The position numbers and the translations under genes were made by a program. From the UHGV virus genome UHGV-0084588: 64,000 bases of DNA. The stretch is one strand, 5' to 3'. Below, piece by piece: positions 15,461 through 38,736 of the stretch. The notes under the pieces were generated by a model. That model had not been told where the DNA came from and did no database searches. It saw only the letters and a list, made by a program, of their open reading frames with translations. The stretch is from a virus. The number at the start of each line of letters is the position of its first letter. Position 1 is the stretch's first letter.

Positions 15461-16828
15461 GTGGAACATAAACTAGAATATTACGGGATTTCAGGGCGAC
15501 TAATTAGTCACGATAAAATGCTACGTGACTGTATACAAGAAGCGGAGGAAAAAGGCTACAAACCCCCGATTATTATCAATGACGTTGCTGCAACGATGGA
15601 TACCATCGAAGCGTCAGAGATGATTAACCAAATACTTCAAAACCGAATCGTTGATGAAACACTCAACTCGGCTCCTATTTGCAGTCTGACCTGCGAATCA
15701 CCTATTACCCATCGTTATAATCTTGGGTTACGTTGCCCACATTGTGGTCATGTTGTTTCTGAACATCGGATTACGTCCGAAGTTTGGCTACGTGCACCCG
15801 ATGAGATAGGTAACTTTATCAATCCACGTTTTTGGTCTCTCTTTAATGCTTTCTTTGGCTCTAAGCTGAAAAAATTTAATCGTAACAAAGTGACGGTAGA
15901 GCGTGGTTCTGATTTGCTGCTATGGCTAATCGATCCGTACTACCATCCAGAAAAGGACGAAGGAACACGTGCTCGTGTGGTGAAAAGAATCCTCAGCGAA
16001 CATGGTTTCGAACGGGGAATTCGAAACTTTATCGACCACCATCGAACCGTCTTTAATATCCTTACGTCCCCGGAAGCTTGGAAGGAGATTTATCCACCGA
16101 CGAAAAACAACCGTTATGAGAGTGAACGCGTACGCTTAGAATGGCGTGAGTTCTTTCAGGAACAATCGTTCTCATTCTTTCCAAGACACCTTCCGATTAT
16201 TTCATCGAAACTGATCGTTACAGAGGAGCGCCGACAAGGTATCTTTATCGATCCCGTTTACACCAGTGCCATCGATGCAGTAAAAAATGTGGCGTTGTTG
16301 TACACGAATGCACGTCGTATCGAACCACGATTTATTATTCGTCGCGCGATCAAAGCGAATCGACAACTTGCGTATTTCTATATTGACCATCGTCAGGAAG
16401 TGATGGAAGGTAAACCTGGGTTCTATCGGGCAAAACTCGGGTCAACGCACGTACCGTGGGGCGGACGTGTGACTATCTCTCCTATCTCTGAACCTCACGA
16501 TGCGTTGAAAGTTATTGCGCCTTGGCGTTGGTTAGTTCCGTTGGCGAGTGTTCACATTGAGAACAAGTTAGGTCGACGTGACTACACACCTCGACAGTGT
16601 GAACGAATTATTGCATTCGCGGCAATGCAGTATGTACCGTTGGTACATGAAATTATTAATGAGCTGATTAAAGAATCCCCCGGCGGATTCGGTTTAATGT
16701 TGGAAGTTCTACGTAACCCAACATTGGTTCAGCTTTCTATTCAGACATTGTTTATCTCGGCGGTACTGACAGATGTAACACAATGTTCTCTGCGTATTTC
16801 TGATCGCGTCATCAAAGCACCTAATGCT
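15461..16828 (+). CDS. RNA polymerase beta-prime-like subunit, N-terminal fragment, exon 1
   Basis: Zn-ribbon C-x4-C...C-x2-CG; GKPGFYRAKLG...GGRVTISP matches [41 protein letters not shown] matches NRAPTLHRLGIQAF; ends ...KAPNA where bacterial beta-prime has YNA|DFDGD; GTG start. Confidence 0.75.
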
Positions 16829-17178
16829 AAATACTGGCCCACTAGACGGGAAACCTCTAGTGCGTATCCCTCGAATTGCTGGGAACTCCTAAAGCTTACG
16901 ATCCCGACAGGGTGGCGAAAGTCAGAAACAATTCGTAAGATAGCCTATGCTAACCAATAATGCTAAGGGTTGAGATAATGGATAACCAGCAGCGATGAAA
17001 ATCGTTCAACGACTATCGAAAGGGTAAAACCGAGTAGAGTAGCTGCTTAGTTTAGCGGCGAAGTGGGGGAGACCTACGGGTAGCAATACCTACGGTTATG
17101 ATATAGTCTGTGCCCATGTGAAAGCATGGGAGGGTGTCATTGCACACCTGCTCCAAAAGGAATGGGGTGGACAAACAG
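16829..17178 (+). ncRNA. group I self-splicing intron (350 nt, no internal ORF) interrupting the NADFDGD motif
   Basis: Exon 1 ends in U and intron ends in G; joining gives ...APNA-DFDGDQ...; core-like elements (consensus from memory): P aattgctgggaa (16874-16885), Q aaccagcagc (16984-16993), R gttcaacgacta (17004-17015), S gatatagtc (about 17100-17108). Confidence 0.75.
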
Positions 17179-17418
17179 GATTTCGATGGCGATCAGTTAC
17201 AATGCAGATTGGCAATCGACCAGATTGAAATGGAACTGGGCATGGCTTATCGTCCAGACAACGGGTTTATGTCAAGCACGAATGTGGATGAGGTTTCGAG
17301 CTGCATGATTCTCCATAACGAGAACATCAGCAACATAAACCGTTTCTTCCAGGATACTGAAGAGGACCTGGAGGCCGGTATCGCGCTTGACTCGGAATTA
17401 TTAAAAATGGCGGGGTAA
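17179..17418 (+). CDS. RNA polymerase beta-prime-like subunit, N-terminal fragment, exon 2
   Basis: Begins DFDGDQ...; ...MSSTN matches bacterial ...MMSTNN; same frame as ORF 17134..17418, whose apparent GTG start has no spaced RBS. Confidence 0.7.
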   Translation, partial: DFDGDQLQCRLAIDQIEMELGMAYRPDNGFMSSTNVDEVSSCMILHNENISNINRFFQDTEEDLEAGIALDSELLKMAG

Positions 17419-17424
17419 TGAAAC

Positions 17425-18012
17425 ATGGGCATGTGGAACTTAGGCGGAACCATCTGGACGCGACAAACTGAAAATAGTGGGATGTATCGCTATTTCAGAG
17501 ACAATTTCGATATTAACGCCTTTGCTCCTGACATGATCGAAAGCGTTAAACGAAAATGTAATGAGTTAATTTCATTAGAGCGTTTCCGTGAGATGTATGC
17601 AGCCGCACGCAAAGTACAGCACAGCGATGCGACTGACGTTGTACGACAATTGGAGAAGATAGGACAATTCCAGTTTGCAAACGCAACCTTACAGCCGTTG
17701 CTAATGGCAATGCCGGAATATCGACAATTGTACAATAACAACATGGCGACCGGTTATGAAAACGGGTATTCGAAAATCGATAACTTCCGTGGTTCGGCGT
17801 ATATGCATACGGACGATAACTTCCGCGAAGTAACGTCGGGTATGTCCAACGAGTACGATGAAGATCGTATTTGGAACTGGGTATCCAACGAAGATCGATC
17901 CAACAAACTCACTCGTGTAGAGCAAGTTGACATGCAAATCAACTGGGCACGTATGCGGAATTTTGATTGGGAAGACGAAGATCCGTGTTCTGAACTCGGC
18001 GCTTCGTGTTAA
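17425..18012 (+). CDS. hypothetical protein (195 aa)
   Basis: ATG 6 nt after upstream stop; terminator downstream. Confidence 0.55.
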   Translation: MGMWNLGGTIWTRQTENSGMYRYFRDNFDINAFAPDMIESVKRKCNELISLERFREMYAAARKVQHSDATDVVRQLEKIGQFQFANATLQPLLMAMPEYRQLYNNNMATGYENGYSKIDNFRGSAYMHTDDNFREVTSGMSNEYDEDRIWNWVSNEDRSNKLTRVEQVDMQINWARMRNFDWEDEDPCSELGASC

Positions 18013-18018
18013 TCGAAA

Positions 18019-18050
18019 AGAAGGGGATTGGGCACCCCCTTCTTTTTTCT
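18019..18050 (+). terminator. rho-independent terminator
   Basis: hairpin gaagggg-attgggcac-ccccttc followed by TTTTTT. Confidence 0.6.
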
Positions 18051-18089
18051 TATTTACAGCAGCAGCTATCAATGTGATAGGAGTAGTAA

Positions 18090-18473
18090 ATGGCGATTGC
18101 AGTAGGCACGGTTTCTACACGCGGCTGGGCAAAAACGCCCCGCGAACGTATTCGTGAGATGATGAATCATTACACGGAAGCAGGGTATAGCCAATCGCAA
18201 ATTTATCAAGGTAATGTCCGGTCACTTGCGAAAGCGAAGCAAATGTTTGCTCAAGATCCCGACGGCTTAGCCAATCGGGTGAAAACAGACTTAACTACGC
18301 TTTACGAACATATTTTTCCTGAAGGGGTTGAAGTAGAGACAACCTGGGAATATTTACCGGATACCGATGTACGCTATCGTATCATTATCCAAGCTCGCGT
18401 TATGTCGGGTGGGGTGTGGTATGATGTGGAACGATATGTTGAAACTGAAACATCAGTTATTGAGGATGAGTAA
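18090..18473 (+). CDS. hypothetical protein (127 aa)
   Basis: ATG with taggag RBS. Confidence 0.6.
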   Translation: MAIAVGTVSTRGWAKTPRERIREMMNHYTEAGYSQSQIYQGNVRSLAKAKQMFAQDPDGLANRVKTDLTTLYEHIFPEGVEVETTWEYLPDTDVRYRIIIQARVMSGGVWYDVERYVETETSVIEDE

Positions 18474-18475
18474 GG

Positions 18476-19144
18476 ATGGATCAAGAACCGGGAAAATTTA
18501 ATGGGGTGCCCATTGAAGAACTTTCTGGCCGTGCTAAGTTTGAGTTTGAGAAACTTCTTGAAATGGAAGAGATGCTTAAACAGGGCCAGGGTGTGTGCAG
18601 CGTGTTTACTGAATCGATGTTCCGTCGACAAGGTTTACCGCTGTTGTCGGGGATGCTGGATGGTACGTTTAACGAAGATACCTGGACGGATTATGTAGGG
18701 AGCGCTTTCGTTCCGTTACAGATTGTTTCGGATTCGGATAATTCAAAACTGCTCTTTACGATCCCGCCTCTGCTTAATACCGGTCGGTCACTTCAACATG
18801 TTGACGGTCAGCCATCGCTCACCGAAGAAACAGAGATGATTCGCCAGCAAGCCGATATCATTTCCGAGGTCGGTGAACGGCAGATGTATCAGATGATCGA
18901 TTATACGCTGGATGGTATCGAACAGTTATCGTACGAAGAAAATGCACTTCGTGCAAAACAGGTTATCGATCTGTTAAACTGGATCTTCCGTCGTTATAAC
19001 GTATCAGGGCAATTACCTTATCCTGAAGGACTTGAAGAATTGTGCAACCGTATCCAAGGACGAAAGAAACCTGCAACGGCGGCACAACCTGAACAGTCCT
19101 CCCCTGCTAAGGGAAGAAGAATCATCGATGAAGAGGATTACTAA
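18476..19144 (+). CDS. hypothetical protein (222 aa)
   Basis: ATG with taagg RBS immediately after upstream stop. Confidence 0.55.
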   Translation: MDQEPGKFNGVPIEELSGRAKFEFEKLLEMEEMLKQGQGVCSVFTESMFRRQGLPLLSGMLDGTFNEDTWTDYVGSAFVPLQIVSDSDNSKLLFTIPPLLNTGRSLQHVDGQPSLTEETEMIRQQADIISEVGERQMYQMIDYTLDGIEQLSYEENALRAKQVIDLLNWIFRRYNVSGQLPYPEGLEELCNRIQGRKKPATAAQPEQSSPAKGRRIIDEEDY

Positions 19145-20276
19145 TCCGCCACCGAAACCAGTTGGCGTCAAACGCATTTTCTCAACGGGCGATGTACATT
19201 TACTGCACCGTCGTGTACCGACGTGGCATATTGTTAACGTGCTCAAGGAAACCTTAGAACGGTTCGATAATACGATTGACGCTATTTATATAGCTGGCGA
19301 TTTATTTGATGATTCCCGGCATTTGCGGCAAGAAGATTCTCAAGAAGCCATAGGGTTTTTAACCTGGTTATTGCTCTGGGCCAAACAGACGAATACCGCT
19401 ATTCGTGTCTTGGAAGGAACACCCTCCCACGATCATAAACAATCGAAAATCGTTGAAGAGTTAAATCAGGCGGTGAGTGCAGATTGTTTGTATCTGGATA
19501 AGATTGGGGTGTTTTACGACGAGGCGTTAGGAGCGACTATCGGTTGGGTCCAGGACGAGTATAAAGCCCTGGGTTCTGAGTCTATTGATGCTGCCGCAAC
19601 AGAACAGGAAATGGCTGAATTATTAGCCACGCGCGGTATACAGCAGATGGATTTCTGCTTTATGCATGGCTGCTTTCAGTTCCAAGTTCCCGTTGAGTCT
19701 ACCCGCTTTTTCCATACAGATTTTTGGGAACCGTTAGTCAAGCATTTGATTATCATCCACCACGATCATCGTAGGAAACAATTGGGTAAGATTCGTGTAC
19801 CAGGCAGCCCCGATCGCCTGGCAATGGGTGAAGAAGAGGACAAAGGCTTTGCTATTGTCGATTTCACTCCTGATTTAGCCAGGGATTATTTCTTGGTTAA
19901 TGAACGCGCTTGCCCGCAGGTTAAAATTGCTGCGGAGGAGGACTACGAATCGCAGTACGCGAAATGTCTCTCTGCGCTTGAGTATATTGATACTCATCCG
20001 TCCTCGGTAATAGGACGATTGGAAATTGAATATTATCCCGATTCTCCATTGGCGGAAGCCATTACTCGGTGGAAATCGCAATATTCATTCCATATTTCAG
20101 GTACGCGTATACGTACGCCTGAAGAGGAGCAAATTCTCGCAGCCGGTTTTGCTATCGACGCAGAGGTCGAGGAAACCATCTCTGAAGAGAATGTTGAAGC
20201 GATTTTGTTAGAAGCATTAGTGCCGTTTAAATACGATGCACAAATTGTCACTGACATTATCAGGAGCATCAAATGA
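19128..20276 (+). CDS. calcineurin-like metallophosphoesterase, Mre11/SbcD-like nuclease candidate
   Basis: Motifs GDVHLL (D-x-H), AGDLFDD (GDxxD), GTPSHD (GNHD-like) in canonical order; start taken at in-frame ATG 19128. Confidence 0.5.
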   Translation: MKRITNPPPKPVGVKRIFSTGDVHLLHRRVPTWHIVNVLKETLERFDNTIDAIYIAGDLFDDSRHLRQEDSQEAIGFLTWLLLWAKQTNTAIRVLEGTPSHDHKQSKIVEELNQAVSADCLYLDKIGVFYDEALGATIGWVQDEYKALGSESIDAAATEQEMAELLATRGIQQMDFCFMHGCFQFQVPVESTRFFHTDFWEPLVKHLIIIHHDHRRKQLGKIRVPGSPDRLAMGEEEDKGFAIVDFTPDLARDYFLVNERACPQVKIAAEEDYESQYAKCLSALEYIDTHPSSVIGRLEIEYYPDSPLAEAITRWKSQYSFHISGTRIRTPEEEQILAAGFAIDAEVEETISEENVEAILLEALVPFKYDAQIVTDIIRSIK

Positions 20277-21109
20277 CCCCAATCAGTGTTGATCGCACGT
20301 TTGGGTTTTATCAAATGTCAATTGCTACATCGTTGGCTTTTGAAGGGCTTCTCCATGAAGGAGAATATGCCGATTGGAAGGGTCCTGTCCCTATCCACAA
20401 GTATCAGGATATTTACCTGAATCTACGGACGTTGTTCCGTAACGCGTTTTACGCGTTTGAAACGAATCGTGAACGATTAACACCTGAAGTGTTGCTGGCA
20501 TCGATTGAAGAAGATATTGCTTCTATTAACGCTACCGCGAAAGCGGTAGCGCCTTCGGTGCTATGTGTCCCCTATATCTGTACGTATAAAAGTGCGAACA
20601 GAGTCTTTCCAGAAGCAGCGTTCCGTACGATCGCAGGCGGGCAGGAAAAGATGACACCTAACCAGCATCACTTTAATGCGTTAGAACACGATACGTTAAA
20701 GTTATACGGTGAAAAATATCCTGAACAATTCAAAAGCTTTGATGTGTTTCCGAAAGGACAGCACGACACGTTGATTTTAACCCATTACCCTGCCGATCTG
20801 CTGGCCTACAAAGATTTCCCGCTGTTGAATTTGTTAGAATCACACACGGGGAAAATTAAAGGTCGGTTAGAATGGTACACGAAGCTTTACGGTAAACCCG
20901 AACAGATCCCGTTTAACAAAGCGTTCCTAACGCTATTTGGCGATGGGTATATGTTCTCCCCACTTGACAGAAAGGTTCGTAAGGTGGTGTTGAATACTGC
21001 CGAGAAATACCACTGGCGACAAGATACGACCATGGATCGTATTTACAGTTGCTTGAAGTTGGTTAACGAACCCTTTGTCATTGAGTTCCTTCGTAGATTG
21101 TCTCGCTAA
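20273..21109 (+). CDS. hypothetical protein (278 aa)
   Basis: ATGA overlap with upstream gene; caggag RBS. Confidence 0.55.
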   Translation: MTPISVDRTFGFYQMSIATSLAFEGLLHEGEYADWKGPVPIHKYQDIYLNLRTLFRNAFYAFETNRERLTPEVLLASIEEDIASINATAKAVAPSVLCVPYICTYKSANRVFPEAAFRTIAGGQEKMTPNQHHFNALEHDTLKLYGEKYPEQFKSFDVFPKGQHDTLILTHYPADLLAYKDFPLLNLLESHTGKIKGRLEWYTKLYGKPEQIPFNKAFLTLFGDGYMFSPLDRKVRKVVLNTAEKYHWRQDTTMDRIYSCLKLVNEPFVIEFLRRLSR

Positions 21110-21831: not shown

Positions 21832-21862
21832 TAGCCCCAGGATATCCTGGGGCTCTTTATCG
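21832..21862 (+). terminator. terminator-like hairpin
   Basis: agccccagg-atat-cctggggct followed by a short T-rich stretch. Confidence 0.5.
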
Positions 21863-21894
21863 TGTATGTGTGTAGAATACAGTCGAAGTTATCT

Positions 21895-21911
21895 GAGATA
21901 GATTTTATCTT
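21895..21911 (+). promoter_or_regulatory. candidate promoter/operator, TAGAT-TTT-ATCT palindromic variant
   Basis: gagatagattttatctt about 35 bp upstream of ATG 21946. Confidence 0.3.
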
Positions 21912-21945
21912 AGTGCACGACTATGCTATTCCTGGAGATTTTAAA

Positions 21946-23574
21946 ATGCGTATTGAAAAGAATCGTGACCGTTTAGTGATAAAATACGGTGAAAAGGAGG
22001 TCGCGTTTAATGGTTTCCGAAACGGACGTAAAGACGTGAATGTGCCAGACGTACGCGATAGTTTCGGACAGATCGTAACGCATGATAAAATCATGTTCAT
22101 GGAAATCGATCGTTATTGGTCAACTTTAACGCCCGAAGAGAAAAGCGAACTGTTTTCAGTTTACGAAGAATTAGAGTTGTTAGCTAATGAACCCCCAGAA
22201 GTTATTCGTGAACACGTTCCCACACTCGTCGCGAGAATTGCTAAATTTCATCACGCAGATAGATTCCGCCAGCTTTATCCACACGGCTCGGTGTGGATTC
22301 CTCAAAACGTCCACGAAACGTACGAAGAGATGTCGTCGAATTATCCAAAAGAGATGACGTATATTGTACAAGATTATTACGAACTGGTGATTTTGTCTTT
22401 GATGACAAAACCGTTTATTCCAGTATTCTTGATTTTGGACGCTTTTCCTGCAACACGTGCTTCTGTTGAGTCGAAGCGCAAAAGTGTTTATAACCTGACC
22501 TACTGCATGGAGCTATTGTCGGATACCGAGATTGCCACGCTGCCTGCCATTACAAAGTTGCGTGAGTTTTTAGTGTCGGTGATTTCGAAAGTTCAAGACG
22601 GGGGCAGTAAAGGACCCAATACTGCAAATCTTACCGTCCTGGCATCTATCTGCGGCTACGGCACGGATATGGTAGAGGAATACATCGTAGCGTTCGCTGT
22701 TATCCGTTTAATTGCGATGAAGTTAATCGGTGCCGAGCTACCACCGGGTACGATGGTTGAAAACAACATCGTGGCGGGAATGTATTTCAATATTCGACAA
22801 GAAATTGAAACTGGCTTCGCGGGAAAAATTTCCGGTCAAAACGTGATGCTAAAAGCGAATCCTGAGAAAATCATGTTCAACGGCGAGAAGGGGAAAACTT
22901 CGTCGATTGACTTGGTTCAGGCTCGGACTAAAGCACCGATGAAAGAATTCGTTCGTACCCAAGAATTCTTTAATGACTACCGTCGTGCGGTGCGTGCTTT
23001 GAATCTCGATATTGCTCCCGCAGATGTGAAAGTGCTGATAGATTCTATCAACATTAATCATCAGTATCCGTTCTACGAACTCTACGAATGGTTGGTGGCG
23101 GCAGTGATGCACCGATTTGCAGATCGTCGTACATACAAGGAAATCGACTCGGAAGCATTTAAGAACGCGATGGGTATATCCCAAGCCGTTTACATCTATT
23201 ACGGAATGCCTGAGATTGCGCAGCTGTTAAGTTGTGAGATGATCCGGGCACCGCTAAATGGCGGGTATCCTATCGAACCGATCGATAATGAGATTAAAAT
23301 AAAAACGGATAGATATTATCCACAGGCATACCGTAAGCATCGTAATACTTACGAACAGTCAACGTTGAAGGATTCTCTCAGCTTGTTGGTTCGTGAGCAT
23401 ATTGCACCGTTCAACTTCAATCTCAGGGCAACACCGGAAGCAGCCAGAATGTTACGGTGTGGGACAGTGATGTTGGACTATTCGCCTCATCCGCGACTTC
23501 AGAACATGTTAGCAGAATTTCTGTTAATTCAAAACAGAAAGAAATGTGAAGAAGTGGCATGGTTTAATCAATAA
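21946..23574 (+). CDS. hypothetical protein (about 542 aa)
   Basis: ATG at 21946 with ggag RBS, chosen over ORF-track start 21862. Confidence 0.5.
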   Translation: MRIEKNRDRLVIKYGEKEVAFNGFRNGRKDVNVPDVRDSFGQIVTHDKIMFMEIDRYWSTLTPEEKSELFSVYEELELLANEPPEVIREHVPTLVARIAKFHHADRFRQLYPHGSVWIPQNVHETYEEMSSNYPKEMTYIVQDYYELVILSLMTKPFIPVFLILDAFPATRASVESKRKSVYNLTYCMELLSDTEIATLPAITKLREFLVSVISKVQDGGSKGPNTANLTVLASICGYGTDMVEEYIVAFAVIRLIAMKLIGAELPPGTMVENNIVAGMYFNIRQEIETGFAGKISGQNVMLKANPEKIMFNGEKGKTSSIDLVQARTKAPMKEFVRTQEFFNDYRRAVRALNLDIAPADVKVLIDSININHQYPFYELYEWLVAAVMHRFADRRTYKEIDSEAFKNAMGISQAVYIYYGMPEIAQLLSCEMIRAPLNGGYPIEPIDNEIKIKTDRYYPQAYRKHRNTYEQSTLKDSLSLLVREHIAPFNFNLRATPEAARMLRCGTVMLDYSPHPRLQNMLAEFLLIQNRKKCEEVAWFNQ

Positions 23575-27136: not shown

Positions 27137-29374
27137 ATGAAAACGCCAGTAGAGCTAATGAGCAGTGTGGCTGACCGTGAGATTAATATCACCGAAGTAT
27201 CAGGTGCAAGGGCATCGATGGTAGGCAACCATATGAAGTCTGCGGTCCCTATCGACAATCCTGAACCATCGCCACATTTTACAGGGGCAGATATAAACTA
27301 CCACGATTTTCTGTTCAATGACGTTGTAGAAGATCCCGGTAGCATCTGCCACTATATGACCAAAGACGGTCGTCAGCGCCGTGCGACATTTACACGTTAT
27401 GGTCGTCGTGGGGATTCTAAAGCGTTGGAACATGCTATCTTCTTCCGCCGTGCAGAAATGAAGGGCGGTAAAACCATGATAGATGTGTTGGAGATTAACT
27501 TCTATACTAACCACGACAACATCTTCTCATCTGAGAAACGTGAGTCGATGAAACTGCGTAGTATTTTACGTGGTGAAACCGATCAGTTGGAAAAGGATGA
27601 AATTCTTACAACAATGTCGTGTATGGTGGAAGGTGAGTACGCTGATAGCGTCGTGCTACCAACCGTTACGATTTCGCATCCTGATATTATCGAGGATTCT
27701 TACACCATCTCTGAGTACGCCGCCCAAAAGCTCCACGGCTACGGTTTGAAAATCGTTGAAAAGACGCTACGCGAAGACGAGTTTTTACTGGATACTTACG
27801 GTTATATCGATCCGAATGGTAATCGTGTCCCACGCTATTTCCCGGATGTGGGGGAAGCTATTCGTGATGATGGGCTGGTCATTGCATCACGTCGTTTCGA
27901 TGAGCTTTACGGTGCGATTGATGCGTCGCTTGGGGAAACCCAACACGTCTCCCCGTTCTTTGATAGTTGCGAATATGTGGATGCCGATCCCGTCCATTAT
28001 AAAGCACGCCTTGCGGGCGACAAAGAACTGATGGAGAGTAGCGGTACACGCATCGTCGATATCCAGGTGTGGCGTGATGAAACGTCTTGCGCGAATGGTA
28101 CCAACAATATTTCTTGTACCGAAGAGAACAAACGAGAACTGGATAAATACGCATTAGCATTGAAAGACTATTACAATGCCATTGTACGTTTCTATTTCTC
28201 GATGTCTCGTGACAAAAATATTATCTGGTCACCGAAGGCGTGTGTGCTGTTGGAAAAAGCCTTCGCTTCCGAAACGTACGAAGTCTATCACGAGTTTCGT
28301 GAAGAGATTCGCGTAGTGATTGATGAAGCGATTCGTCGTGGTGAATATGGTAAAGAAAATGTCAGTCAGCAAATTCTTTCTAAGTTGACCGCACCAGTAC
28401 AGCGTGGACTCAGCGATCCCATCAACACGTATACCATTCGTATTGCTGTTCGTTATCCGATCCCGGTAACGGTGTCGTCTAAGATTACTGACCGTTCGGG
28501 TACGAAAGGGATTGTTGGACGCGTGTTACCCGTTGAACAGATGCCGATTAACGAATTCGGTGAACGTGTTCACGTTTTACGTTCGATGAACGCTGTAATT
28601 CGTCGCTCGACTTATGCAGCACTATTCCACATGTATTGGTCAGCTGCGTCTGAGCAGTTGAAGATGCGTCTTAAACCAATGCTGGACGAAGGCCGTATCA
28701 GTGAATGTTGGGAAATCCTGATGGATTATCTGTCACGTTATAATCCTGAATGGGCCAACACACTACAGGTAACACATCCTACGGAGGATTTACAACGCGA
28801 ACTCTTTAAAGAGATTTACGATTTTACAATACGTATTTACTTGCCACATGAACTTGACGACACGCCAGTCGATATCAGTGAACGGTTGGGTGAATTTAAA
28901 CCACGTAAATCAAAACTTCTACTTACTAACTTCGACGGTAAGCAGGAATGGACAAAAGATGAATTTTACGTAGGTGGTGTGGAAACATTGCGTCTGGATA
29001 AAACAGGTCGTGAGTTTTCCAGTATCTCGTCAATGTATCTGAATTATCTGGGTACGATAGACGCATCTAACCAAGGTCGTGGCTCGTATCCGATAAACTA
29101 TAAAACGCTAAAATGGGCTGGTCCTTCGGAAGAACGACTGTTAGCGGGTTATGGTCCAGGTAACTACGAAGAAGTTCACGATAGGGCAAATAACCCTGCG
29201 GTACATCGTGAGATTTTAGTAGGGCTTTATCGATCTCAAACCCCATCTAATCCGGGTCCATTAGTAGACCGGAATAAATTCCCGTTAGGGGATTCGCAGA
29301 TTGACAGGATGATGAAAAACATCCACAACTGTGAAGGGTTTGAATTGGTGAAAATGAAAAGGGGCGATGAATAA
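27137..29374 (+). CDS. RNA polymerase beta-like subunit, C-terminal fragment
   Basis: ARASMVGNHMKSAVP matches ANRALMGANMQRQAVP; IIEDSYTISE matches YNFEDSILVSE; GTRIVDIQVWRDE matches GTVIDVQVFTRDG; DRSGTKGIVGRVLPVEQMP...SMN matches GRHGNKGVISKINPIEDMP...SRMN. Confidence 0.75.
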   Translation: MKTPVELMSSVADREINITEVSGARASMVGNHMKSAVPIDNPEPSPHFTGADINYHDFLFNDVVEDPGSICHYMTKDGRQRRATFTRYGRRGDSKALEHAIFFRRAEMKGGKTMIDVLEINFYTNHDNIFSSEKRESMKLRSILRGETDQLEKDEILTTMSCMVEGEYADSVVLPTVTISHPDIIEDSYTISEYAAQKLHGYGLKIVEKTLREDEFLLDTYGYIDPNGNRVPRYFPDVGEAIRDDGLVIASRRFDELYGAIDASLGETQHVSPFFDSCEYVDADPVHYKARLAGDKELMESSGTRIVDIQVWRDETSCANGTNNISCTEENKRELDKYALALKDYYNAIVRFYFSMSRDKNIIWSPKACVLLEKAFASETYEVYHEFREEIRVVIDEAIRRGEYGKENVSQQILSKLTAPVQRGLSDPINTYTIRIAVRYPIPVTVSSKITDRSGTKGIVGRVLPVEQMPINEFGERVHVLRSMNAVIRRSTYAALFHMYWSAASEQLKMRLKPMLDEGRISECWEILMDYLSRYNPEWANTLQVTHPTEDLQRELFKEIYDFTIRIYLPHELDDTPVDISERLGEFKPRKSKLLLTNFDGKQEWTKDEFYVGGVETLRLDKTGREFSSISSMYLNYLGTIDASNQGRGSYPINYKTLKWAGPSEERLLAGYGPGNYEEVHDRANNPAVHREILVGLYRSQTPSNPGPLVDRNKFPLGDSQIDRMMKNIHNCEGFELVKMKRGDE

Positions 29375-31473
29375 TGAAGGGCACTCCAGTTCACGTGCGT
29401 GATCTGTGTAAACTGAACTCGGATCAGGTGTGGCTATTGCGCGGCAGATATGAAGTGACGTTTGATGACGGGGTAACCTTAAACATGTCAGGACGTCACA
29501 TTAAAATCAGTTGGCCTTATTGGGGGCTAACACGATTTTATCCGCAGATCCCAATCAGTTCGCAAATGGCGTATAAACATGGCGATACCGCTACAGACGA
29601 CGCACATCTGAAGTTTATGTCATTGGCAGCTGTAGCGGCTCGTAAAGCGGGTGTGGATTTAGCAGACACCCGTTATTTATTACAGCAGCACGTTTATGCG
29701 GATGCGTTTAATTTATCGGTGAAAAATCTGTTATCGTATTGCGTCACGATTGACTACGATACGATGATGGAAATTTACCAACACCGAAACTTTACGCAGA
29801 TTCATCAGTGGGCACAAATGTATCCTACTGGGTACGACGAAGAAGGTCGGGATATGGTTGAGGAAGCGTATCTTCTTATCGAAGATATCTTCAAAGACCC
29901 ACAACTTTGTTTAAACCCCGTGGTGATGTCGGTCTTGGATAAGACCATCAAAATGAACCAGGTTCTTCAGGCGTATATACGCGGGAAAACATCGGAGATT
30001 GATTCTCGTGTTTATTCTAACCAGGTATGGGAAGGTTTCTTCACGGGCCTACATTCTGTAATTAGCCGTCTGAAAGAAGCAGGTGCAACGTCACGTTCTC
30101 ACCTGTATAACACCGATAAAATCGCTGATGCGGAATATGCGTCACGTAAGCTACAGTTAGCAGCTAACGTGTTAATGTATTTCGAATACGACGATTGTGG
30201 TACGCATCACGTTCATCGTCACACGTTTACAGAAAGTAAACTGGAGCGTAAGAAGTACGATGCGATGGTGGGAATGCGTTATCGTTTTGAAGGTGTGGGT
30301 GGCCCGTGGCTACGATTCGAGAAAGGGGAGTTTGAGAAAGTCTTAGGCAAACCTATTGAGTTTCGTACCGCGATGTGTTGTAAGGGGATGGCACGTCAAA
30401 GCATTTGTGCAACCTGCATGGGTGATTTGATTTATAACCTTTCGCCGGGAACGTCCCCAGGTCACTTGGCCTCAACCTCGATATCTGAAAAGGGTACACA
30501 GGGGATTCTCTCAACGAAACACTTGGACTTCTTACGCTATCTGCTGAATCTGGTGCTGACTCCAAGAATGCGGGATTATCTTGGTGAGTATAAACACAAC
30601 TCCGTAAAAGGATTGAGTTTACGGGAGAAACCGCAGTACGGTAATTGGGATGAATACCAACTCGTTATTTCTGATGAAGTTTATTCTGAAATCAGCCAAA
30701 TCGCGTATCATGACGATTTGGAAGTGATCGACGAAACGGCATTGCCGGAGATTAACGAACTGACCTTTTTGCGGTTGGATGAAGCTGGGAATGTGTTGGC
30801 TGAAGATCCCATTGACGTCCGTATGGGGGTTTGTGGTAACTTCTCGAAAGCCTTCTTGCATTTCTTCTTGAAGCAGCGTGATAACATTACATTCCCGTCG
30901 AAGAAACTGGTACGGATTCCCCTGAAAGGATGGAAACCGAGTTGGCCGATACTAATTTATACGAATCGGTCTGAATCTATGGCGGAGTTTGTAGCAGGGT
31001 TAGAATTGAAACTTCGTTCGGTTGCGTCTGATAAATCGGATACTTTCGAACAGTTCTCTGATGACTCAATGCGTTTGAGCAAGAAGTCGGGTAAGGTAAA
31101 ACCAACGACACTGGTTCAGATGCGCGGTGCTACGGAGAAACAATGTACGCACGCGTTATTTGATGTGTTTAAATATATCCAACGTAAGCTCGGTGGTATT
31201 CCGATGACACACATCGCGATTATGCTGGCGATATCACGCGTTGAATCACCGACCAATCCTTTCCCGGCGGTTGGGTTTGATAGTGAAGATGCTGATGTGA
31301 TGGATGGCAAACGTTTCGAGGATCACAACACGTTGATTGCGATGCGTTCAGCTGTACCGATGTTGTTATTCGAAGGCCAACAGAAAAACCTGGACAACGT
31401 GCGTTTCTACACGTCGCGTAAACGTCCGGCGTCGTTATACGACAATACGGTGGCCGCGACTATCATTGAGTAA
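29374..31473 (+). CDS. RNA polymerase beta-prime-like subunit, C-terminal fragment
   Basis: FEYDDCGTHH matches VTEDDCGTHEG; CATCMGDL...SISEKGTQGILSTKHL matches CAHCYGRDL...SIGEPGTQLTMRTFH; TAATG overlap with the beta gene. Confidence 0.7.
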   Translation: MKGTPVHVRDLCKLNSDQVWLLRGRYEVTFDDGVTLNMSGRHIKISWPYWGLTRFYPQIPISSQMAYKHGDTATDDAHLKFMSLAAVAARKAGVDLADTRYLLQQHVYADAFNLSVKNLLSYCVTIDYDTMMEIYQHRNFTQIHQWAQMYPTGYDEEGRDMVEEAYLLIEDIFKDPQLCLNPVVMSVLDKTIKMNQVLQAYIRGKTSEIDSRVYSNQVWEGFFTGLHSVISRLKEAGATSRSHLYNTDKIADAEYASRKLQLAANVLMYFEYDDCGTHHVHRHTFTESKLERKKYDAMVGMRYRFEGVGGPWLRFEKGEFEKVLGKPIEFRTAMCCKGMARQSICATCMGDLIYNLSPGTSPGHLASTSISEKGTQGILSTKHLDFLRYLLNLVLTPRMRDYLGEYKHNSVKGLSLREKPQYGNWDEYQLVISDEVYSEISQIAYHDDLEVIDETALPEINELTFLRLDEAGNVLAEDPIDVRMGVCGNFSKAFLHFFLKQRDNITFPSKKLVRIPLKGWKPSWPILIYTNRSESMAEFVAGLELKLRSVASDKSDTFEQFSDDSMRLSKKSGKVKPTTLVQMRGATEKQCTHALFDVFKYIQRKLGGIPMTHIAIMLAISRVESPTNPFPAVGFDSEDADVMDGKRFEDHNTLIAMRSAVPMLLFEGQQKNLDNVRFYTSRKRPASLYDNTVAATIIE

Positions 31474-33493: not shown

Positions 33494-33504
33494 AAAGAAC
33501 AGAA

Positions 33505-33538: not shown

Positions 33539-33555
33539 CTAAAGGAATATAAAAA

Positions 33556-34128
33556 ATGTCACGTCGTAAAAAGAAACCCGCTTATAACCCACGTGCTCTG
33601 GCGAAGAAAACCCTTCGTGAAAGCGTGAAGAACGTGTATAAACTGGTCATTCTGTTCGAAGACCAAATGAAAATTTTGGCTGAGCGTATCGACAAAGAAC
33701 GCGAGATTCTGGACGCGCTGCAAGAACCAGAATATAAAGAATTTGCCATTAACGCGTTAGATGAAGCGAAAGCGGCTTTCGTGGGTCTGATGGCAGAGGG
33801 GAAAGAAAAGCTGGGTGCCAAATTGATTGCGATCGATGAAGTGGCAACCAAAACCAAAACGATGTTGGAAAGCACGAATTGGTCCAACGTCAAAGAGCAA
33901 TATGAACTGGATACTTTGCTGGTGACTAACCTGGAAACTGATGCGATGTTCCTGGGTAAAGATATCCAGGGTGCCGCGATTGAGATCTTGTCACTGTACA
34001 ATAGTCGCGCCGATTTCGTAAAACGTGCAATGCAGCAAGGTAGCACGTTCGCTGAAGCGTACGAACTTCTACAGCAGGCCGAGCAGGCTGTAAAACAACC
34101 AGACACCGTCGTTGAAGCAGAGGGTTAA
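33556..34128 (+). CDS. hypothetical coiled-coil protein (190 aa), basic N-terminus
   Basis: ATG with aaagga RBS; Lys/Glu/Ala-rich heptad-like sequence. Confidence 0.55.
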   Translation: MSRRKKKPAYNPRALAKKTLRESVKNVYKLVILFEDQMKILAERIDKEREILDALQEPEYKEFAINALDEAKAAFVGLMAEGKEKLGAKLIAIDEVATKTKTMLESTNWSNVKEQYELDTLLVTNLETDAMFLGKDIQGAAIEILSLYNSRADFVKRAMQQGSTFAEAYELLQQAEQAVKQPDTVVEAEG

Positions 34129-34131
34129 TTA

Positions 34132-36090
34132 ATGTCAGATACTTTAGACCAACGCCCAGGCAATGGGCGTCGTCGGGCTCAGGAAGACGCACCTCATGTC
34201 GTCGTGCCCGAGGTTGACTTGTCTACGATGTCCGCCGACGATGGGATTATGGCAATCAAGCGCAGTAATCCCCAATTTTCATTCGCTCAAGCAGAAGAGA
34301 TGTATCACAATCTCGTAAAAGCGAAACCTGCTGAAGAACCCGTTCTACCTAAACCGGTTTATGAAGAAGAACCTGCTCCGGTAGTGACAATTACCGAGCC
34401 TGAACCCGTTGTCGTTGAGCCAGTTATTCAGCAAACTGGTGCTGCCCCTGCCGCACACAAACCTGAGCCTGCGGTAGAAAAGAAAGTCGAAGAACCTTAC
34501 GTTCCTCAGGCGATTGAAGGTTCGCAGATTGCCGCTGATCACGAACCTGAAGCGTCACCGGCAGTGAAAGAACAACCGGCTGAACACCATGTGAATTTCG
34601 GTACGCAAGCACCGCACGAAGAGATCAGTGAATTGCCCGAAGACGACCCAGGTCGGGTTCTGACAGAGTTCAATACACTGATTGGTTTACGTGAAGACCC
34701 TAATCTCATCGGTAGCGAGCTGAAGAAATTCTTTTCCAGCGTTCCGCGTGGTAATGACGGTCGACTCCTGTTTAAATCGGAAGAACAGCGTGACCTGTAC
34801 GAGCGTTTGTATCGTGCATTGAACATGATGCCGCCGCGTTTACAAAACCAACAGCAAGCGTTCGATGGTGCATTGTCTCGTGAAGATACCGCCTGGGAAC
34901 AGCGTGTGCAGTTGCCGGGAATGTCTAAGCCGGTCGGCTTCATTACACCGCGTAACAGCCAGCACACTGGTGCTATTGCGGCACTTCGTCGTCGCCGTAA
35001 ATCAGGTATCCCTAACTGGGTATGGCTACCCGCAACAGGCATCTTTGTAGGTTTCCGTGCACCATTAGAACGCGAAATCTGCGATTTTGATATTCAGCTG
35101 ACCCTGGAAACTGCAAAAATCGGTATGCAGACTTACGGCCTGATGTTATCCGCGTCTTCAGGTATCTATTTAAGCCATATGGTTGAATTTGCGTTACGCT
35201 TCGTCACCGACTGCACGTTGGATTGCGAAGGGAACGACATGAAGACCGTGCTGTTGGATACTATCGATCTTGCGGATTATTGGCTGTTGCTGATTGGCGT
35301 GATGCAAGCGAAATATCCGGGTGGTTTGCCGTGGACGTTAATCTGTGGTCATGAGGGTTGCGGCTATCAGGAAGATATTCGCCTGAACCTGGCCCGTTGT
35401 ATCCGCATGGGTACGTCACTTTACACAGATATGCAGCGTAGCCTGTGGGCCCAGCAGCGTGGTAAAGAAGACGTTACGATCAGTCGTTTGGAACAACGTA
35501 AGTTTGTTGAAGAACATCTGAAAGATCCGTCTGCGACATTCGTAAGCGACGGCATTACCGTTAAATTCGGTCGTTCGACGTTAGGCAAGTTCTTTGACAA
35601 TACGGAACGTTGGGTCGAAGAGAACAACACCGCGTCCACATCTGCGTTGGCTGAGAAAGGTACCGAACGCGAGCGTGAAGATCATCTCCGTCTCATTACC
35701 GAAGCACGTCGCCTAACACGTTATGCGTATATGGTGGAATCCATTACAGTAACTGAAGAAGTTGTGCAGGACGATGAAGTTCGTGAGGTAAGCACCACAG
35801 AAACGGATACCGATAAGATTATCCAGATTCTGGAGGAGCTGTCTTCCGATCGTCATTATGTGTATGAGTTTGAGGCGGCTGCGGCGAACTATAACGAACG
35901 TAGTCGTTTGGCGGTGTTCGGATATATGGGACAGAAATGTCCGTCGTGCGGCAAAACGCATGAAGGCGAGAAAGAAGGCACTTACCGTGGTATCGTGACG
36001 ATCTCACCGGACCGCGTTTTTTTCGAGCTATCTCGAGTGGTGTCCGAGATTCAGCGGTATCTGAGGGATCAATACGCCGTTATTGGCTAG
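34132..36090 (+). CDS. hypothetical protein (652 aa) with Pro/Glu-rich low-complexity N-terminal region and C-terminal CxxC cluster
   Basis: PEPVVVEPV / EEPAPVV repeats; C-terminal CPSCGKTHEG. Confidence 0.55.
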   Translation: MSDTLDQRPGNGRRRAQEDAPHVVVPEVDLSTMSADDGIMAIKRSNPQFSFAQAEEMYHNLVKAKPAEEPVLPKPVYEEEPAPVVTITEPEPVVVEPVIQQTGAAPAAHKPEPAVEKKVEEPYVPQAIEGSQIAADHEPEASPAVKEQPAEHHVNFGTQAPHEEISELPEDDPGRVLTEFNTLIGLREDPNLIGSELKKFFSSVPRGNDGRLLFKSEEQRDLYERLYRALNMMPPRLQNQQQAFDGALSREDTAWEQRVQLPGMSKPVGFITPRNSQHTGAIAALRRRRKSGIPNWVWLPATGIFVGFRAPLEREICDFDIQLTLETAKIGMQTYGLMLSASSGIYLSHMVEFALRFVTDCTLDCEGNDMKTVLLDTIDLADYWLLLIGVMQAKYPGGLPWTLICGHEGCGYQEDIRLNLARCIRMGTSLYTDMQRSLWAQQRGKEDVTISRLEQRKFVEEHLKDPSATFVSDGITVKFGRSTLGKFFDNTERWVEENNTASTSALAEKGTEREREDHLRLITEARRLTRYAYMVESITVTEEVVQDDEVREVSTTETDTDKIIQILEELSSDRHYVYEFEAAAANYNERSRLAVFGYMGQKCPSCGKTHEGEKEGTYRGIVTISPDRVFFELSRVVSEIQRYLRDQYAVIG

Positions 36091-36206
36091 ACCCGAACGA
36101 GATTCCTTCGGATCACGTCATTAATACGCTTAAGCTTGATACCACCTCACTGTTCAAACAACGTAGCACGCGCCCGATAACTTATCAGGAAGCCCACGAT
36201 GAGCTT

Positions 36207-36512
36207 TTGGGTGCGTACGATTTATCGGTCGGACTAGATACCGGGACGAGACATGTTGGCTTATCAGATTTCGAAAACCCCGAATATGGGAGTTTGTATG
36301 AAATCTGGATGGAAGTGTATCTGCGCGAGCAGATAGGTGAGCATTTCAGAATGACCTTCGACGAGTGGTTAAATCGACCACGGTGGGAGATTTTGATGAT
36401 GCTCCGTGTGCTTAATCGTCGTAAAGCTGCGATTAAGAAAGTCATGAGTGACGTTACTGCCGGTGATCCAGAGCTACAAGGTTTGGAGAAAGAACTTAAG
36501 CTGAAAAATTAA
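36207..36512 (+). CDS. small hypothetical ORF, TTG start or later start; doubtful
   Basis: No ATG with good RBS at the 5' end. Confidence 0.3.
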   Translation: MGAYDLSVGLDTGTRHVGLSDFENPEYGSLYEIWMEVYLREQIGEHFRMTFDEWLNRPRWEILMMLRVLNRRKAAIKKVMSDVTAGDPELQGLEKELKLKN

Positions 36513-36514
36513 GT

Positions 36515-36558
36515 ATAAGGGAGTCGTAAAGACTCCCTTAGCTTTTTCTTTTTTTTTC
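36515..36558 (+). terminator. rho-independent terminator
   Basis: hairpin taagggagtc-gtaaa-gactccctta followed by a long T-run. Confidence 0.7.
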
Positions 36559-36593
36559 GCTTTTGGTATGAACCCCTTGTATTGGAAAAGGCT

Positions 36594-37448
36594 ATGATTG
36601 ACATTTATACCGATTACGCCGCCGTTCTTACCGTCAATCGTGCGGAAGAACGTGCTGCGCCTTTCCTGGACTTAGTAACGCTGTGCATGGATTACGGTTA
36701 CGATGTTGCGTTAAGCGATGTGTATTGGCAACCGTCGTCTGATCCTGCCGACGAAACCGTAAGACTGGAAGGGATTATTGTAAAATGCGCAGTGGCGTTA
36801 GGTAACCGTTTAGGCGTTGCTTTAAACCCACAAGAAGTTTTCCGTAAACCGAAAGAGACCGTACGTATTCTAGACGGCATTACGTCTAAATTCGAAGAGT
36901 TCGAAGACACCGATACGTTATACGGTCTTGTGATGTCTGGAGAAACGCCAGAGTTTATCCTGGAAAGTATCTGCCGTTACGTGTACGGTGACGATAATAT
37001 CCATTTTGAAGATTTGGTCATTCGTGTTTCACCCCGTGTAATGACAGTGATGCGTAATTATCTCTCAGCTATGGTTGTGGATGAGCAACTCGCTGTAGGT
37101 AACGATGTACGTCTGACGCGTATTGCAGAATACTTGCGTCTTTATCCGCAAAATCCCTCTGCGTTCGTATTCTTAAACTTACCTGAAGATCCTGATTTGA
37201 CGGTTGTCCAACAATCGTTAGTCTTTGACGTCGAGGATTACAGCGAAACAGAATTGCTCGAGATGTATACGGTAGGACTTTCGATTATCGATAACGATGA
37301 CTTCGATGACGCGTATGCTGATCTTTCGACGAACTTAGAGAAACTTAATAATGATGGGTTACAACCCATTACTGTTTTACAACCTGCTTTAAAAAGCCTA
37401 CGGGTGATTTATCGGGTTGAGGAGGCAGAGCACGATGACGAGGTTTGA
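36594..37448 (+). CDS. hypothetical protein (about 284 aa)
   Basis: ATG at 36594 with ggaaaagg RBS (ORF track begins at TTG 36582). Confidence 0.5.
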   Translation: MIDIYTDYAAVLTVNRAEERAAPFLDLVTLCMDYGYDVALSDVYWQPSSDPADETVRLEGIIVKCAVALGNRLGVALNPQEVFRKPKETVRILDGITSKFEEFEDTDTLYGLVMSGETPEFILESICRYVYGDDNIHFEDLVIRVSPRVMTVMRNYLSAMVVDEQLAVGNDVRLTRIAEYLRLYPQNPSAFVFLNLPEDPDLTVVQQSLVFDVEDYSETELLEMYTVGLSIIDNDDFDDAYADLSTNLEKLNNDGLQPITVLQPALKSLRVIYRVEEAEHDDEV

Positions 37449-38736
37449 GTTCTTAGTAGCGGCATGTAAAGCCGAAGCATGGCGTCGCTTGGTTTGGCGC
37501 ATTGCTATCTTTAACATGTCGGTGTTTCCAACTGGGCGTGAAGAACCCGAAGCGTTTGATATTACGTACATTGACGGCTTACCGCATTATTACGCTGTAG
37601 AAGACGGCAAGGGCAGTTGGGAACCGATTACCGACGGTGTAAAGGATCAGGAGCTGTTTATCCCTGAAGAACAGTTCGAACTCCGTCCCGACGACTATCC
37701 CGGTCTAGAAGGTCCTATCCCCACGACAGTAGGGCGATACGTTTTTAACTGGATTGTTATCTGGTATGCTTTTGGTACACGTTTACCTTATCTGGCGATT
37801 TCACAAAACCCGTTGGAATACCGCAAAGAGATGCATCGGCGCTGTTTAGACCATGAATCCGATGAGCCAGAAAACGAAGGTGCGATTCGTCCGAGTATGA
37901 TTGAACGCTTTGTAAGCGGCTTACACGAACTCGCTCCTCTCACGTCAGGTATTGCACCAACCGGTACGTTACGAAGCCTTACGGTGCATCCTGATGCGTA
38001 TAAAATTCGCGATGCGTTGCTGTTGAAGCATAAGGATGAATTAGACGATCCTGCCGTTATCGTTAAGATTGAAAAAGCGTTGGATGAGTTAGACAAAGAG
38101 TGGTTGTCAGGTGACCAATCTATTGAGTTTTATAACTCGCCGAAATCACGGATGCGTCGTCGTAAATTAATGTTGATGTACGGTATTGAGTCGTCTTTTC
38201 AGGAAGGGGGACATTACACGCTCATTCCGAACGCGTTAGTTGAAGTTGATAAGGCGGGGATGGAAAACCTGGTTGCGAAATTCAACTCTATCCGTGAAGG
38301 TTCATTCTCTCGTGGTGCAGAAACAGCGAAAGGGGGTGAGCAGGTACGTATTATCCAGATGATTTTCCAGAACCATCGAATCGTCCCTGGTGACTGTGGA
38401 ACGAAACTAACGTATCCGGTTGTGATTACCGAAGATAACGTAAAACGTTACGTTGGGATGAATGCGATGGTTAATGGTAAACTGACGCCACTGACTGAGG
38501 AATATTTAAAGCAGCAGTTAGGTAAGGTGGTGCGGTTACGCCGACCCATCTTATGTCAGTATGGCCACATCGACACCTGCACAGCGTGTTCGTCAGCGAA
38601 TAAAGGGGAAGAACCTCGTGCAATCGCTGCGGATATATCCTCGGCGTTCTCTAACGTTATGTCCGTGGCAATGGCCGCGATGCACGGTAAAGAGACTGTG
38701 GTACACGAATTTAATCCATCGATCCACATTACGTAA
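37435..38736 (+). CDS. second RNA polymerase beta-prime-like C-terminal fragment (paralog of 29374-31473)
   Basis: SFQEG...REGSFSRGAETAKGG matches NFREG...HGARKGLADTALKTANSG; IVPGDCGT matches VVTEDDCGT; CTACSSANKGEEPRAIAADISSAF matches CAHCYG...NKGEAIGVIAAQSIGE; same 65-aa DCGT-to-CxxC spacing as 29374. Confidence 0.55.
   Translation: MTRFEFLVAACKAEAWRRLVWRIAIFNMSVFPTGREEPEAFDITYIDGLPHYYAVEDGKGSWEPITDGVKDQELFIPEEQFELRPDDYPGLEGPIPTTVGRYVFNWIVIWYAFGTRLPYLAISQNPLEYRKEMHRRCLDHESDEPENEGAIRPSMIERFVSGLHELAPLTSGIAPTGTLRSLTVHPDAYKIRDALLLKHKDELDDPAVIVKIEKALDELDKEWLSGDQSIEFYNSPKSRMRRRKLMLMYGIESSFQEGGHYTLIPNALVEVDKAGMENLVAKFNSIREGSFSRGAETAKGGEQVRIIQMIFQNHRIVPGDCGTKLTYPVVITEDNVKRYVGMNAMVNGKLTPLTEEYLKQQLGKVVRLRRPILCQYGHIDTCTACSSANKGEEPRAIAADISSAFSNVMSVAMAAMHGKETVVHEFNPSIHIT

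Follow-up and report, generated by a model that had tools for sequence, protein, structure and literature searches.

A predicted self-splicing group I intron in the catalytic motif of a chimallivirus RNA polymerase gene, within a region encoding subunits of both phage RNA polymerases

In nucleus-forming jumbo phages, transcription of the genome is carried out by two multisubunit RNA polymerases (RNAPs) that are fragmented and independent of sigma. A 64,000-nucleotide (nt) stretch of the virus genome UHGV-0084588 (the window, to which all coordinates refer) raises two questions: which pieces of these enzymes are encoded between positions 15461 and 38736, and how the first of them, the N-terminal part of beta' (beta'-N), could be produced from a gene whose reading frame is interrupted within its catalytic motif. 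The best explanation overall, which we regard as very probable, is that the window is a chimallivirus region encoding four subunits of the non-virion RNAP (nvRNAP) and one subunit of the virion RNAP (vRNAP), and that the beta'-N gene is split by a self-splicing group I intron. The features on which this reading is built, all on the + strand, are as follows (ORF, open reading frame; aa, amino acids).

15461..16828, + strand: predicted nvRNAP beta'-N exon 1; GTG start; ends ...SDRVIKAPNA, thus including the first two residues of NADFDGD
16829..17178, + strand: predicted group I intron, 350 nt, ORF-less; from Rfam RF00028 and comparison with intron-less homologs
17179..17418, + strand: predicted nvRNAP beta'-N exon 2; opens with DFDGDQLQ, where the catalytic aspartates lie, and continues up to the stop codon
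21862..23574, + strand: homolog of phiKZ gp68, the fifth (non-beta/beta') nvRNAP subunit; 7ogp_B match
27137..29374, + strand: predicted nvRNAP beta C-terminal part (beta-C), 745 aa; match to 7ogp_C (phiKZ gp71-73)
29374..31473, + strand: predicted nvRNAP beta' C-terminal part (beta'-C), 699 aa; start overlaps the beta-C stop codon
37435..38736, + strand: predicted vRNAP beta' middle fragment, 433 aa; bridge helix, DCGT and CxxC zinc site; ortholog of SPN3US gp42

The nvRNAP of phage phiKZ (gp55/56.1, gp68, gp71-73, gp74 and gp123; PDB 7OGP) was used as the reference for subunit assignment, and four of its five subunits, beta'-N, the gp68-like protein, beta-C and beta'-C, are predicted from their homologies to be encoded in the window. 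An initial annotation, made by a model from the letters of the window, had listed four stretches as RNAP fragments, and all four matched PHROG families described as 'RNA polymerase beta subunit' at values far beyond chance (spliced beta'-N, phrog_2987 at 8.8e-164; beta-C, phrog_3295 at 7.4e-251; beta'-C, phrog_3015 at 1.4e-223; the 433-aa protein, phrog_2962 at 4.9e-169). Its coordinates for the last three (27137-29374, 29374-31473 and 37435-38736) agree with the ORF listing, and the comparison with phiKZ subunits that it had recommended bore it out: the 535-aa spliced beta'-N matched gp55/56.1 (7ogp_A) at 6.8e-39, beta-C matched gp71-73 at 3.4e-30, and beta'-C matched gp74 (7ogp_D) at 3.5e-32 (residues 8-684 versus 8-662). 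Matches to the AR9 nvRNAP were also obtained for beta-C (chain C, 3.9e-14) and beta'-C (chain D, 2.8e-4), and beta-C matched bacterial beta at ~2e-5.

Identities to proteins of the phages Asesino and SPN3US were far higher, at 68% over 532 aa to Asesino gp40 and 67% to SPN3US gp23 for spliced beta'-N, 76% to Asesino gp51 and 70% to SPN3US gp34 for beta-C, and 75% to both Asesino gp52 and SPN3US gp35 for beta'-C. The gp68-like subunit at 21862-23574 had been missed in the initial inventory. It was identified with phmmer by its match to 7ogp_B (PHIKZ068) at 2.3e-10 (residues 73-481 versus 37-433) and with tblastn by a collinear match (6.9e-9) to the locus of phiKZ gp68, and it is 67% identical to Asesino gp47. 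The fifth subunit, the N-terminal part of beta (beta-N), had been reported absent from the window, and this held: Asesino gp94, the homolog of phiKZ gp123 (4e-17), gave no tblastn match within the 64 kb. By synteny its gene is expected to lie beyond position 64000, which would make its absence a consequence of where the window ends and not a property of the phage.

The beta'-N gene itself had been described as one ORF at 15461-17418, a description that does not hold. The frame from GTG 15461 stops at 16960 (stop codon 16958-16960), and DFDGDQ lies in a separate 94-codon frame at 17134-17418. In contrast, Asesino gp40 and SPN3US gp23 are continuous, reading ...SDRVIKMANGDFDGDQF..., and both genomes lack exactly the 350 nt that had been overlooked here as a group I intron. 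On the exon 1 side, tblastn alignments with these two proteins extend to 16834. Exon 1 ends GTC ATC AAA GCA CCT AAT GCT (V I K A P N A), codon-for-codon with the ATG GCG AAC GGT of Asesino. The intron was placed at 16829-17178 because exon 1 ends at this GCT (16826-16828) and the frame resumes with GAT TTC GAT GGC GAT at 17179. Since alignment of the window with intron-less DNA by MAFFT misplaced the 5' exon, the junction was set by visual inspection and then verified by protein alignment with phiKZ.

So placed, the intron splits NADFDGD between its A and D codons, and splicing would yield ...KAPNA/DFDGDQL, where the slash marks the junction. Removal of exactly 350 nt restores the host frame and reproduces NADFDGD at the junction. 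This double-psi beta-barrel catalytic loop is present in beta'-N only once 16829-17178 has been removed; the alignment of the spliced protein with phiKZ gp55/56.1 then continues unbroken through KAPNADFDGDQL, where all 12 residues are identical.

The intervening sequence was matched by the Rfam group I intron model RF00028 with 61.4 bits (gathering threshold 50; E = 3.8e-13) over 16819-17130 and the full model length (1-253). The 48 nt past 17130 consist of two conserved hairpins, P9.1 and P9.2, and a conserved 3' tail, GGACAAACAG. Position 17130, the end of the Rfam alignment, was considered as the 3' splice site and rejected, as it would add 16 residues before DFDGD. The predicted splice sites and helices, all on the + strand, are:

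after U16828, + strand: 5' splice site; canonical U
G17178, + strand: omega-G; canonical terminal G, conserved at the end of ...GGACAAACAG
16826-16829 (GCU/A, the slash marking the splice site) with 16835-16838 (UGGC), + strand: P1; pairs the exon codon to the internal guide
16840-16862, + strand: P2; intron helix
16867-16872 with 17065-17071, + strand: P3; intron helix
16877-16882 with 16986-16991, + strand: P4; intron helix
16992-17005, + strand: P6; intron helix
17011-17015 with 17104-17108, + strand: P7; guanosine-binding helix
17072-17097, + strand: P8; intron helix
17113-17130, + strand: P9; intron helix
17132-17149, + strand: P9.1; conserved hairpin past the Rfam end
17150-17168, + strand: P9.2; conserved hairpin past the Rfam end

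Covariation was assessed in an alignment of seven related introns, from which RNAalifold recovered P2-P6, P8, P9, P9.1 and P9.2, with P7 added as a pseudoknot. Across 82 pairs in 19 helices, 93.4% of cells were standard-paired, compared with 36-44% when partners were slid by 1-3 columns; 40 pairs were changed on both sides, compared with 8-14 when slid, and the observed values were attained in none of 500 shuffles. The structure was derived from the same seven-intron alignment, which inflates these contrasts somewhat, although the margin is large even so. P7 carries a U-A to C-G swap among the seven introns, and P1 covaries with the exon (GCU with guide GGC in the window, VB_ZK_P1 and EL; GGU with guide GCC in EC001 and SaP7). 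Minimum free energy folding of the intron alone (z = -2.25) reproduced most helices; it missed P7, as expected because the core is pseudoknotted. Within 16829-17178, no ORF of at least 40 aa that could encode an endonuclease was found beyond the exon 1 read-through and short overlapping frames, and a whole-window Rfam search at a permissive threshold returned no further introns or other RNAs besides one transfer RNA (tRNA).

The same intron was found at the same site in a range of other phages. Among members of the Seoulvirus SPN3US species it is present in EC001, JN03, Lh1B, SPLA3, SPLA5c and 1252, and absent in SPN3US itself. It also occurs in SaP7 and Proteus phage 7, with ~1 kb of extra sequence, in Raoultella phage VB_ZK_P1 and Klebsiella phage phiKp_32, whose beta'-N is only ~22% identical to that of the window, and in Pseudomonas phage EL, where it interrupts the motif identically (NA/DFDGD) and aligns with the window intron. 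Two more uncultured contigs from IMG/VR carry it at 88.5% and 73.7% identity. In SaP7, phiKp_32 and EL the P1 loop contains an ORF with HNH_3 and NUMOD1 / I-HmuI-like domains, closed by a stem of 9-18 base pairs (bp); the introns of these three phages and of phiKZ carry an HNH/NUMOD endonuclease gene, whereas the window intron has no ORF.

Related introns sit immediately to either side. The phiKZ intron, located in the same beta'-N gene (gene 55 / gp56 (HNH) / 56.1; Rfam, 75.6 bits), is inserted 3 nt upstream of the window site, between the N and A codons, and a related intron in Vibrio phage 2 TSL-2019 and Photobacterium phage PDCC-1 lies 3 nt downstream (NAD/FDGD). At least three group I insertion points, 3 nt apart, are therefore found in the NADFDGD codons across chimalliviruses (N/A, A/D and D/F), with the A/D site being occupied in the window, EL, Seoulvirus and the Klebsiella/Raoultella phages. 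Endonuclease-bearing group I introns had been predicted for phiKZ genes 56, 72 and 179 in the first description of that genome, and EL introns are also known (cited in PMC10914365 and PMC13282480).

Several further observations were made on these relatives. In VB_ZK_P1 and phiKp_32, removal of the window-type intron after ..FNA leaves a 12-nt exon, GATTTTGACGGT (D F D G), followed by a second insert of 311 nt after DFDG/D and before GAT ACC ATG (D T M), so that their beta'-N seems to need a second removal. This insert is bounded by U and G as a group I intron is, and is 77-79% identical over 93 nt to unannotated stretches of Aeromonas jumbo phages, and that of VB_ZK_P1 had no Rfam match even at E <= 1. 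In Salmonella phage SPFM1, a match to the intron core (82.5% over 28% of the query) was located at another genome position, adjoining small coding sequences (CDSs) annotated 'RNA polymerase beta subunit 3', which suggests a related intron in another RNAP gene of that phage. The GenBank records of EC001, SaP7, VB_ZK_P1 and phiKp_32 present beta'-N as two unrelated CDSs or hypothetical proteins and leave the intron, and the HNH gene where present, unannotated.

It is proposed that the beta'-N precursor messenger RNA would self-splice, with guanosine attacking after U16828 and the exons being ligated after G17178 to give the 535-aa subunit, and we infer that it does so in vivo. A number of points weigh against this reading or against the wider picture in which it stands. 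The main caveat is that the predicted introns of phiKZ were not seen spliced in a long-read transcriptome under the conditions used (PMC10914365). A GTG at 17134 is in frame with exon 2, and GenBank records of relatives annotate two proteins (in EC001, for example, 'beta subunit 1' and 'beta subunit 2'). P1 is short, at 3-4 bp, and the Rfam alignment ends 48 nt before the 3' splice site, a boundary that is thus set by homology and not by the model. Across all RNAP pieces, one Pfam domain passed its curated cut-off, RNA_pol_Rpb2_6 on beta-C (24.3 bits versus 23.4); the profile searches that the initial annotation had suggested as a check thus identified all four of its pieces through PHROG and one through Pfam, and Pfam alone would under-call the RNAP identity. 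Finally, the pieces are assigned to virion and non-virion enzymes by orthology only.

A gene that is not spliced at all would instead yield two polypeptides, 15461-16960 and 17134-17418, and so divide a polymerase already in fragments once again. In favor of this, each piece is an open frame that could have its own start codon, EC001, SaP7 and others are annotated with two CDSs, and one transcriptome study detected no splicing of the phiKZ introns. We nevertheless consider this improbable. The universally conserved NADFDGD loop would be cut, and the two pieces would gain 44 and 15 unrelated residues, respectively. Between them lies RNA that covaries as a group I ribozyme, in relatives without the intron the protein is encoded uninterrupted, and the corresponding chain of the phiKZ structure entry is the fused product of PHIKZ055 plus PHIKZ056.1.

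A premature stop in the genomic frame, in a sequence taken from a metagenome assembly, might alternatively mark beta'-N as a pseudogene disrupted by an insertion, leaving the nvRNAP defective or dependent on another copy; this appears very unlikely, as the boundaries of the insert are exactly those of a group I intron and its core is intact, the exons on either side keep 68% identity and show no other lesion, no second beta'-N copy was found within the window, and the same insert is carried by many viable cultured phages, including EC001, JN03, SPLA3, VB_ZK_P1 and EL. A single intron-containing beta'-N gene, spliced to one subunit, is accordingly retained as the favored reading.

The last of the RNAP pieces, at 37435-38736, required a different approach. 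Its open frame begins at 37417 or 37435 (439 or 433 aa), and the protein is 74% identical to SPN3US gp42 (SPN3US_0042) and 79% identical to Asesino gp59. It had no Pfam match and no single-sequence match in the PDB, and because the latter search gave nothing, the protein had to be placed through a profile of its family and a structure prediction. The profile was built from 64 gathered homologs, of which 39 were aligned. It matched bacterial beta' at 1.4e-5, over residues 735-905, a segment that takes in the bridge helix, DCGT and the cysteines of the zinc site, and phiKZ gp74 at 8.8e-5. The structure prediction proposed in the initial annotation pointed the same way. An AlphaFold model (mean predicted local distance difference test score, pLDDT, 83.8) was searched with Foldseek, and the top 50 matches were exclusively RNAP beta' chains (E = 5e-8 to 2e-6), among them the nvRNAP beta'-C chains of AR9 and phiKZ. 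Template modeling (TM) scores were low, at 0.3-0.4, which we attribute to modeling of the fragment outside its complex.

The assignment of the pieces to two enzymes was made because the roles of their orthologs are known from proteomics, genetics and localization. In SPN3US the vRNAP comprises gp241 (beta-N), gp218 (beta-C), gp240 (beta'-N), gp42 (beta' middle) and gp244 (beta'-C), all of which are virion proteins and all of which are lost in the gp241 amber mutant 241(am11); gp42, at 431 aa, was detected in virions by mass spectrometry (PMC5105663). SPN3US gp35 is the nvRNAP beta' (beta'-C) and gp77 the nvRNAP beta-N (Thomas et al., PMC5105663). By orthology, the genes at 15461-17418, 27137-29374 and 29374-31473 would belong to the nvRNAP set and that at 37435-38736 to the vRNAP set; the gene at 21862-23574 joins the nvRNAP set as the homolog of phiKZ gp68. 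The claim that two beta'-C paralogs signify two RNAP sets is thereby upheld through their orthologs gp35 and gp42 (75% and 74% identity), but the pieces are not shared equally between the sets, since four of five nvRNAP subunits and one of five vRNAP subunits are encoded in the window. No further RNAP pieces were found among the window ORFs run through PHROGs and Pfam (those within ~13-39 kb), and SPN3US gene numbers place gp241, gp218, gp240 and gp244 far from the region matching the window.

The paralogy of the two beta'-C-like proteins had been argued from an identical 65-aa spacing between motifs. DCGT and CxxC are in fact separated by 71 aa in the longer protein (699 aa) and by 62 aa in the shorter one (433 aa), and the spacing argument cannot carry paralogy because direct BLASTP between the two was not significant (E = 0.9); paralogy is instead indicated by profile cross-matches (~1e-7) and by their common match to beta'. 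The BLASTP result, together with the blank Pfam and single-sequence PDB searches for 37435-38736, could be taken to mean that the two are duplicates within one enzyme or that one is not an RNAP protein, so that a single polymerase set is represented, a view with hardly any likelihood given that each ORF has its own ortholog at a conserved position in SPN3US, Asesino and other chimalliviruses, that gp42, but not gp35, belongs to the virion and shows co-dependence with the remaining vRNAP subunits, and that profile and fold searches put 37435-38736 on beta' residues 735-905 with bridge helix and zinc site.

The parallel with phiKZ, SPN3US and Asesino suggests that the virion enzyme would travel in the phage head, enter the cell together with the DNA and transcribe early genes, and that the non-virion enzyme would be made from early transcripts, enter the phage nucleus and transcribe middle and late genes; from the same analogy we infer that the 433-aa protein is packaged and when each enzyme acts.

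The initial annotation had named such split polymerases as characteristic of phiKZ-like nucleus-forming jumbo phages, and the source genome agrees with this: the annotated Asesino and SPN3US maps are collinear with the window, as is the gp65-gp73 block of phiKZ, and a chimallin homolog lies upstream of the polymerase genes.

13529..15376, + strand: homolog of ChmA, the nuclear shell protein; 50% full-length identity to Asesino gp39; phrog_8316 at 1.2e-232

This gene stands directly upstream of the nvRNAP beta'-N gene, an arrangement shared with phiKZ gp54/gp55 and with the Vibrio and Photobacterium phages, in which the gene upstream of beta'-N is annotated 'nuclear shell protein'. A single-sequence search of the PDB, including the solved chimallin structures, gave no direct match to 13529-15376, and because of this its identity was settled via Asesino, for which experiments have demonstrated assembly of a nucleus from chimallin, with gp039 identified as ChmA by localization of a green fluorescent protein (GFP) fusion and gp040, the nvRNAP beta'1, localizing to the phage nucleus (PMC11724907). 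The presence of a chimallin homolog beside nvRNAP genes supports a nucleus-forming phage.

The window was assigned to the Asesino/SPN3US lineage. Megablast with 27137-31473 gave Erwinia phage Asesino as its sole match (71.7% identity over 98% of the query), and a more sensitive nucleotide search with 15461-17418 returned Asesino, SPN3US and many Seoulvirus and Erwinia jumbo phages at 64-69%. Contigs from metagenomes or run assemblies that carry the identical 699-aa protein number at least nine, and the longest of those listed has 224,911 bp. From these records and the collinearity with Asesino and SPN3US, the window appears to be part of the genome of an uncultured chimallivirus, a nucleus-forming jumbo phage whose nearest relatives by sequence are Asesino (genus Erskinevirus) and SPN3US (genus Seoulvirus) and not Phikzvirus.

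Some neighboring features were recorded in passing. The ChmA homolog is far more diverged from Asesino (50%) than the flanking polymerase, DNA polymerase and gp68-like proteins (67-79%). On the - strand, a 649-codon frame at 13520-15469 runs antisense to the entire chimallin gene, where local GC content is 0.49 compared with ~0.45; it is probably a shadow ORF, because it is not conserved, the longest stop-free antisense run in Asesino being 318 codons. The single tRNA of the window, at 1675-1751 (+), was assigned by ARAGORN to tRNA-Ile, its anticodon being AAT, which is unusual (Rfam tRNA, 38.3 bits), and the corresponding region of Asesino holds a cluster of ~13 tRNAs with tRNA-Ile(aat) among them. 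Genes at 9714-12026 (+) and 39307-41202 (-), ~27 kb apart, are each 79% identical to an Asesino 'DNA polymerase' (gp35 and gp61), so that the DNA polymerase also seems to be encoded in two pieces on opposite strands.

The region adds a further uncultured member to a well-described jumbo-phage group and brings nothing new in principle; what stands out most is that intron insertion sites cluster within a single catalytic motif. Clustered sites in host genes only ~22% identical are what would be expected of mobile introns homing to invariant sequence, and the NADFDGD cluster could be a useful system for the study of intron-mediated competition between jumbo phages. We put forward, as a speculative idea whose chances we rate as low, that a 15-nt stretch of the NADFDGD codons is a battleground for mobile introns. 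On this view the ORF-less intron would be more than a degenerate parasite: by disrupting the target site, it might protect the phage against HNH endonucleases of co-infecting relatives; alternatively, its splicing, uncoupled from translation inside the phage compartment, might gate the appearance of the middle/late polymerase. Of more immediate use for annotation, beta'-N in this phage and in several GenBank phages, where it is filed as pairs of 'beta subunit' or 'hypothetical' CDSs, is best treated as a single intron-containing gene, and the gp68-like subunit belongs in the nvRNAP set.

Among known systems, the closest are Asesino and SPN3US, which share with the window an identical gene order and orientation (ChmA, nvRNAP beta'-N, SbcD, gp68-like, nvRNAP beta-C, nvRNAP beta'-C, helicase, then vRNAP beta'M) and RNAP protein identities of 67-79%. 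Nucleotide identity to the window is only ~68-72%, which therefore makes the window phage distinct, and their beta'-N gene is uninterrupted, unlike that of the window. The phiKZ nvRNAP is a more distant counterpart: four of its five subunits have homologs in the window in the same order, but at ~20-27% identity, and its gp123 homolog falls outside the window. In phiKZ, moreover, the beta-C gene is split by an intron (gp71/gp73, with gp72), whereas that of the window is continuous.

Outside this group, the intron, putatively of subgroup IA2, resembles the T4-type (td-like) introns in core stretches that are 95% identical over ~39 nt to intron-bearing regions of T4-like phages and in its insertion at a catalytic-site codon of an essential gene; its P2 hairpin probably resembles that of td as well. 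It differs in that its host gene encodes a multisubunit RNAP subunit and not a nucleotide-metabolism enzyme. The gp210 intron of PhiPA3 (Birkholz et al. 2024, PMC11620839) likewise is a group I intron in a gene for an RNAP subunit of a jumbo phage, inserted beside conserved aspartates. That intron lies in a vRNAP gene, however, and encodes an HNH endonuclease that mediates competition (PMC11620839), whereas the window intron lacks an endonuclease gene; the protective role suggested above is modeled on its part in phage-phage competition. The window intron is a new member of the family already known from phiKZ and EL.

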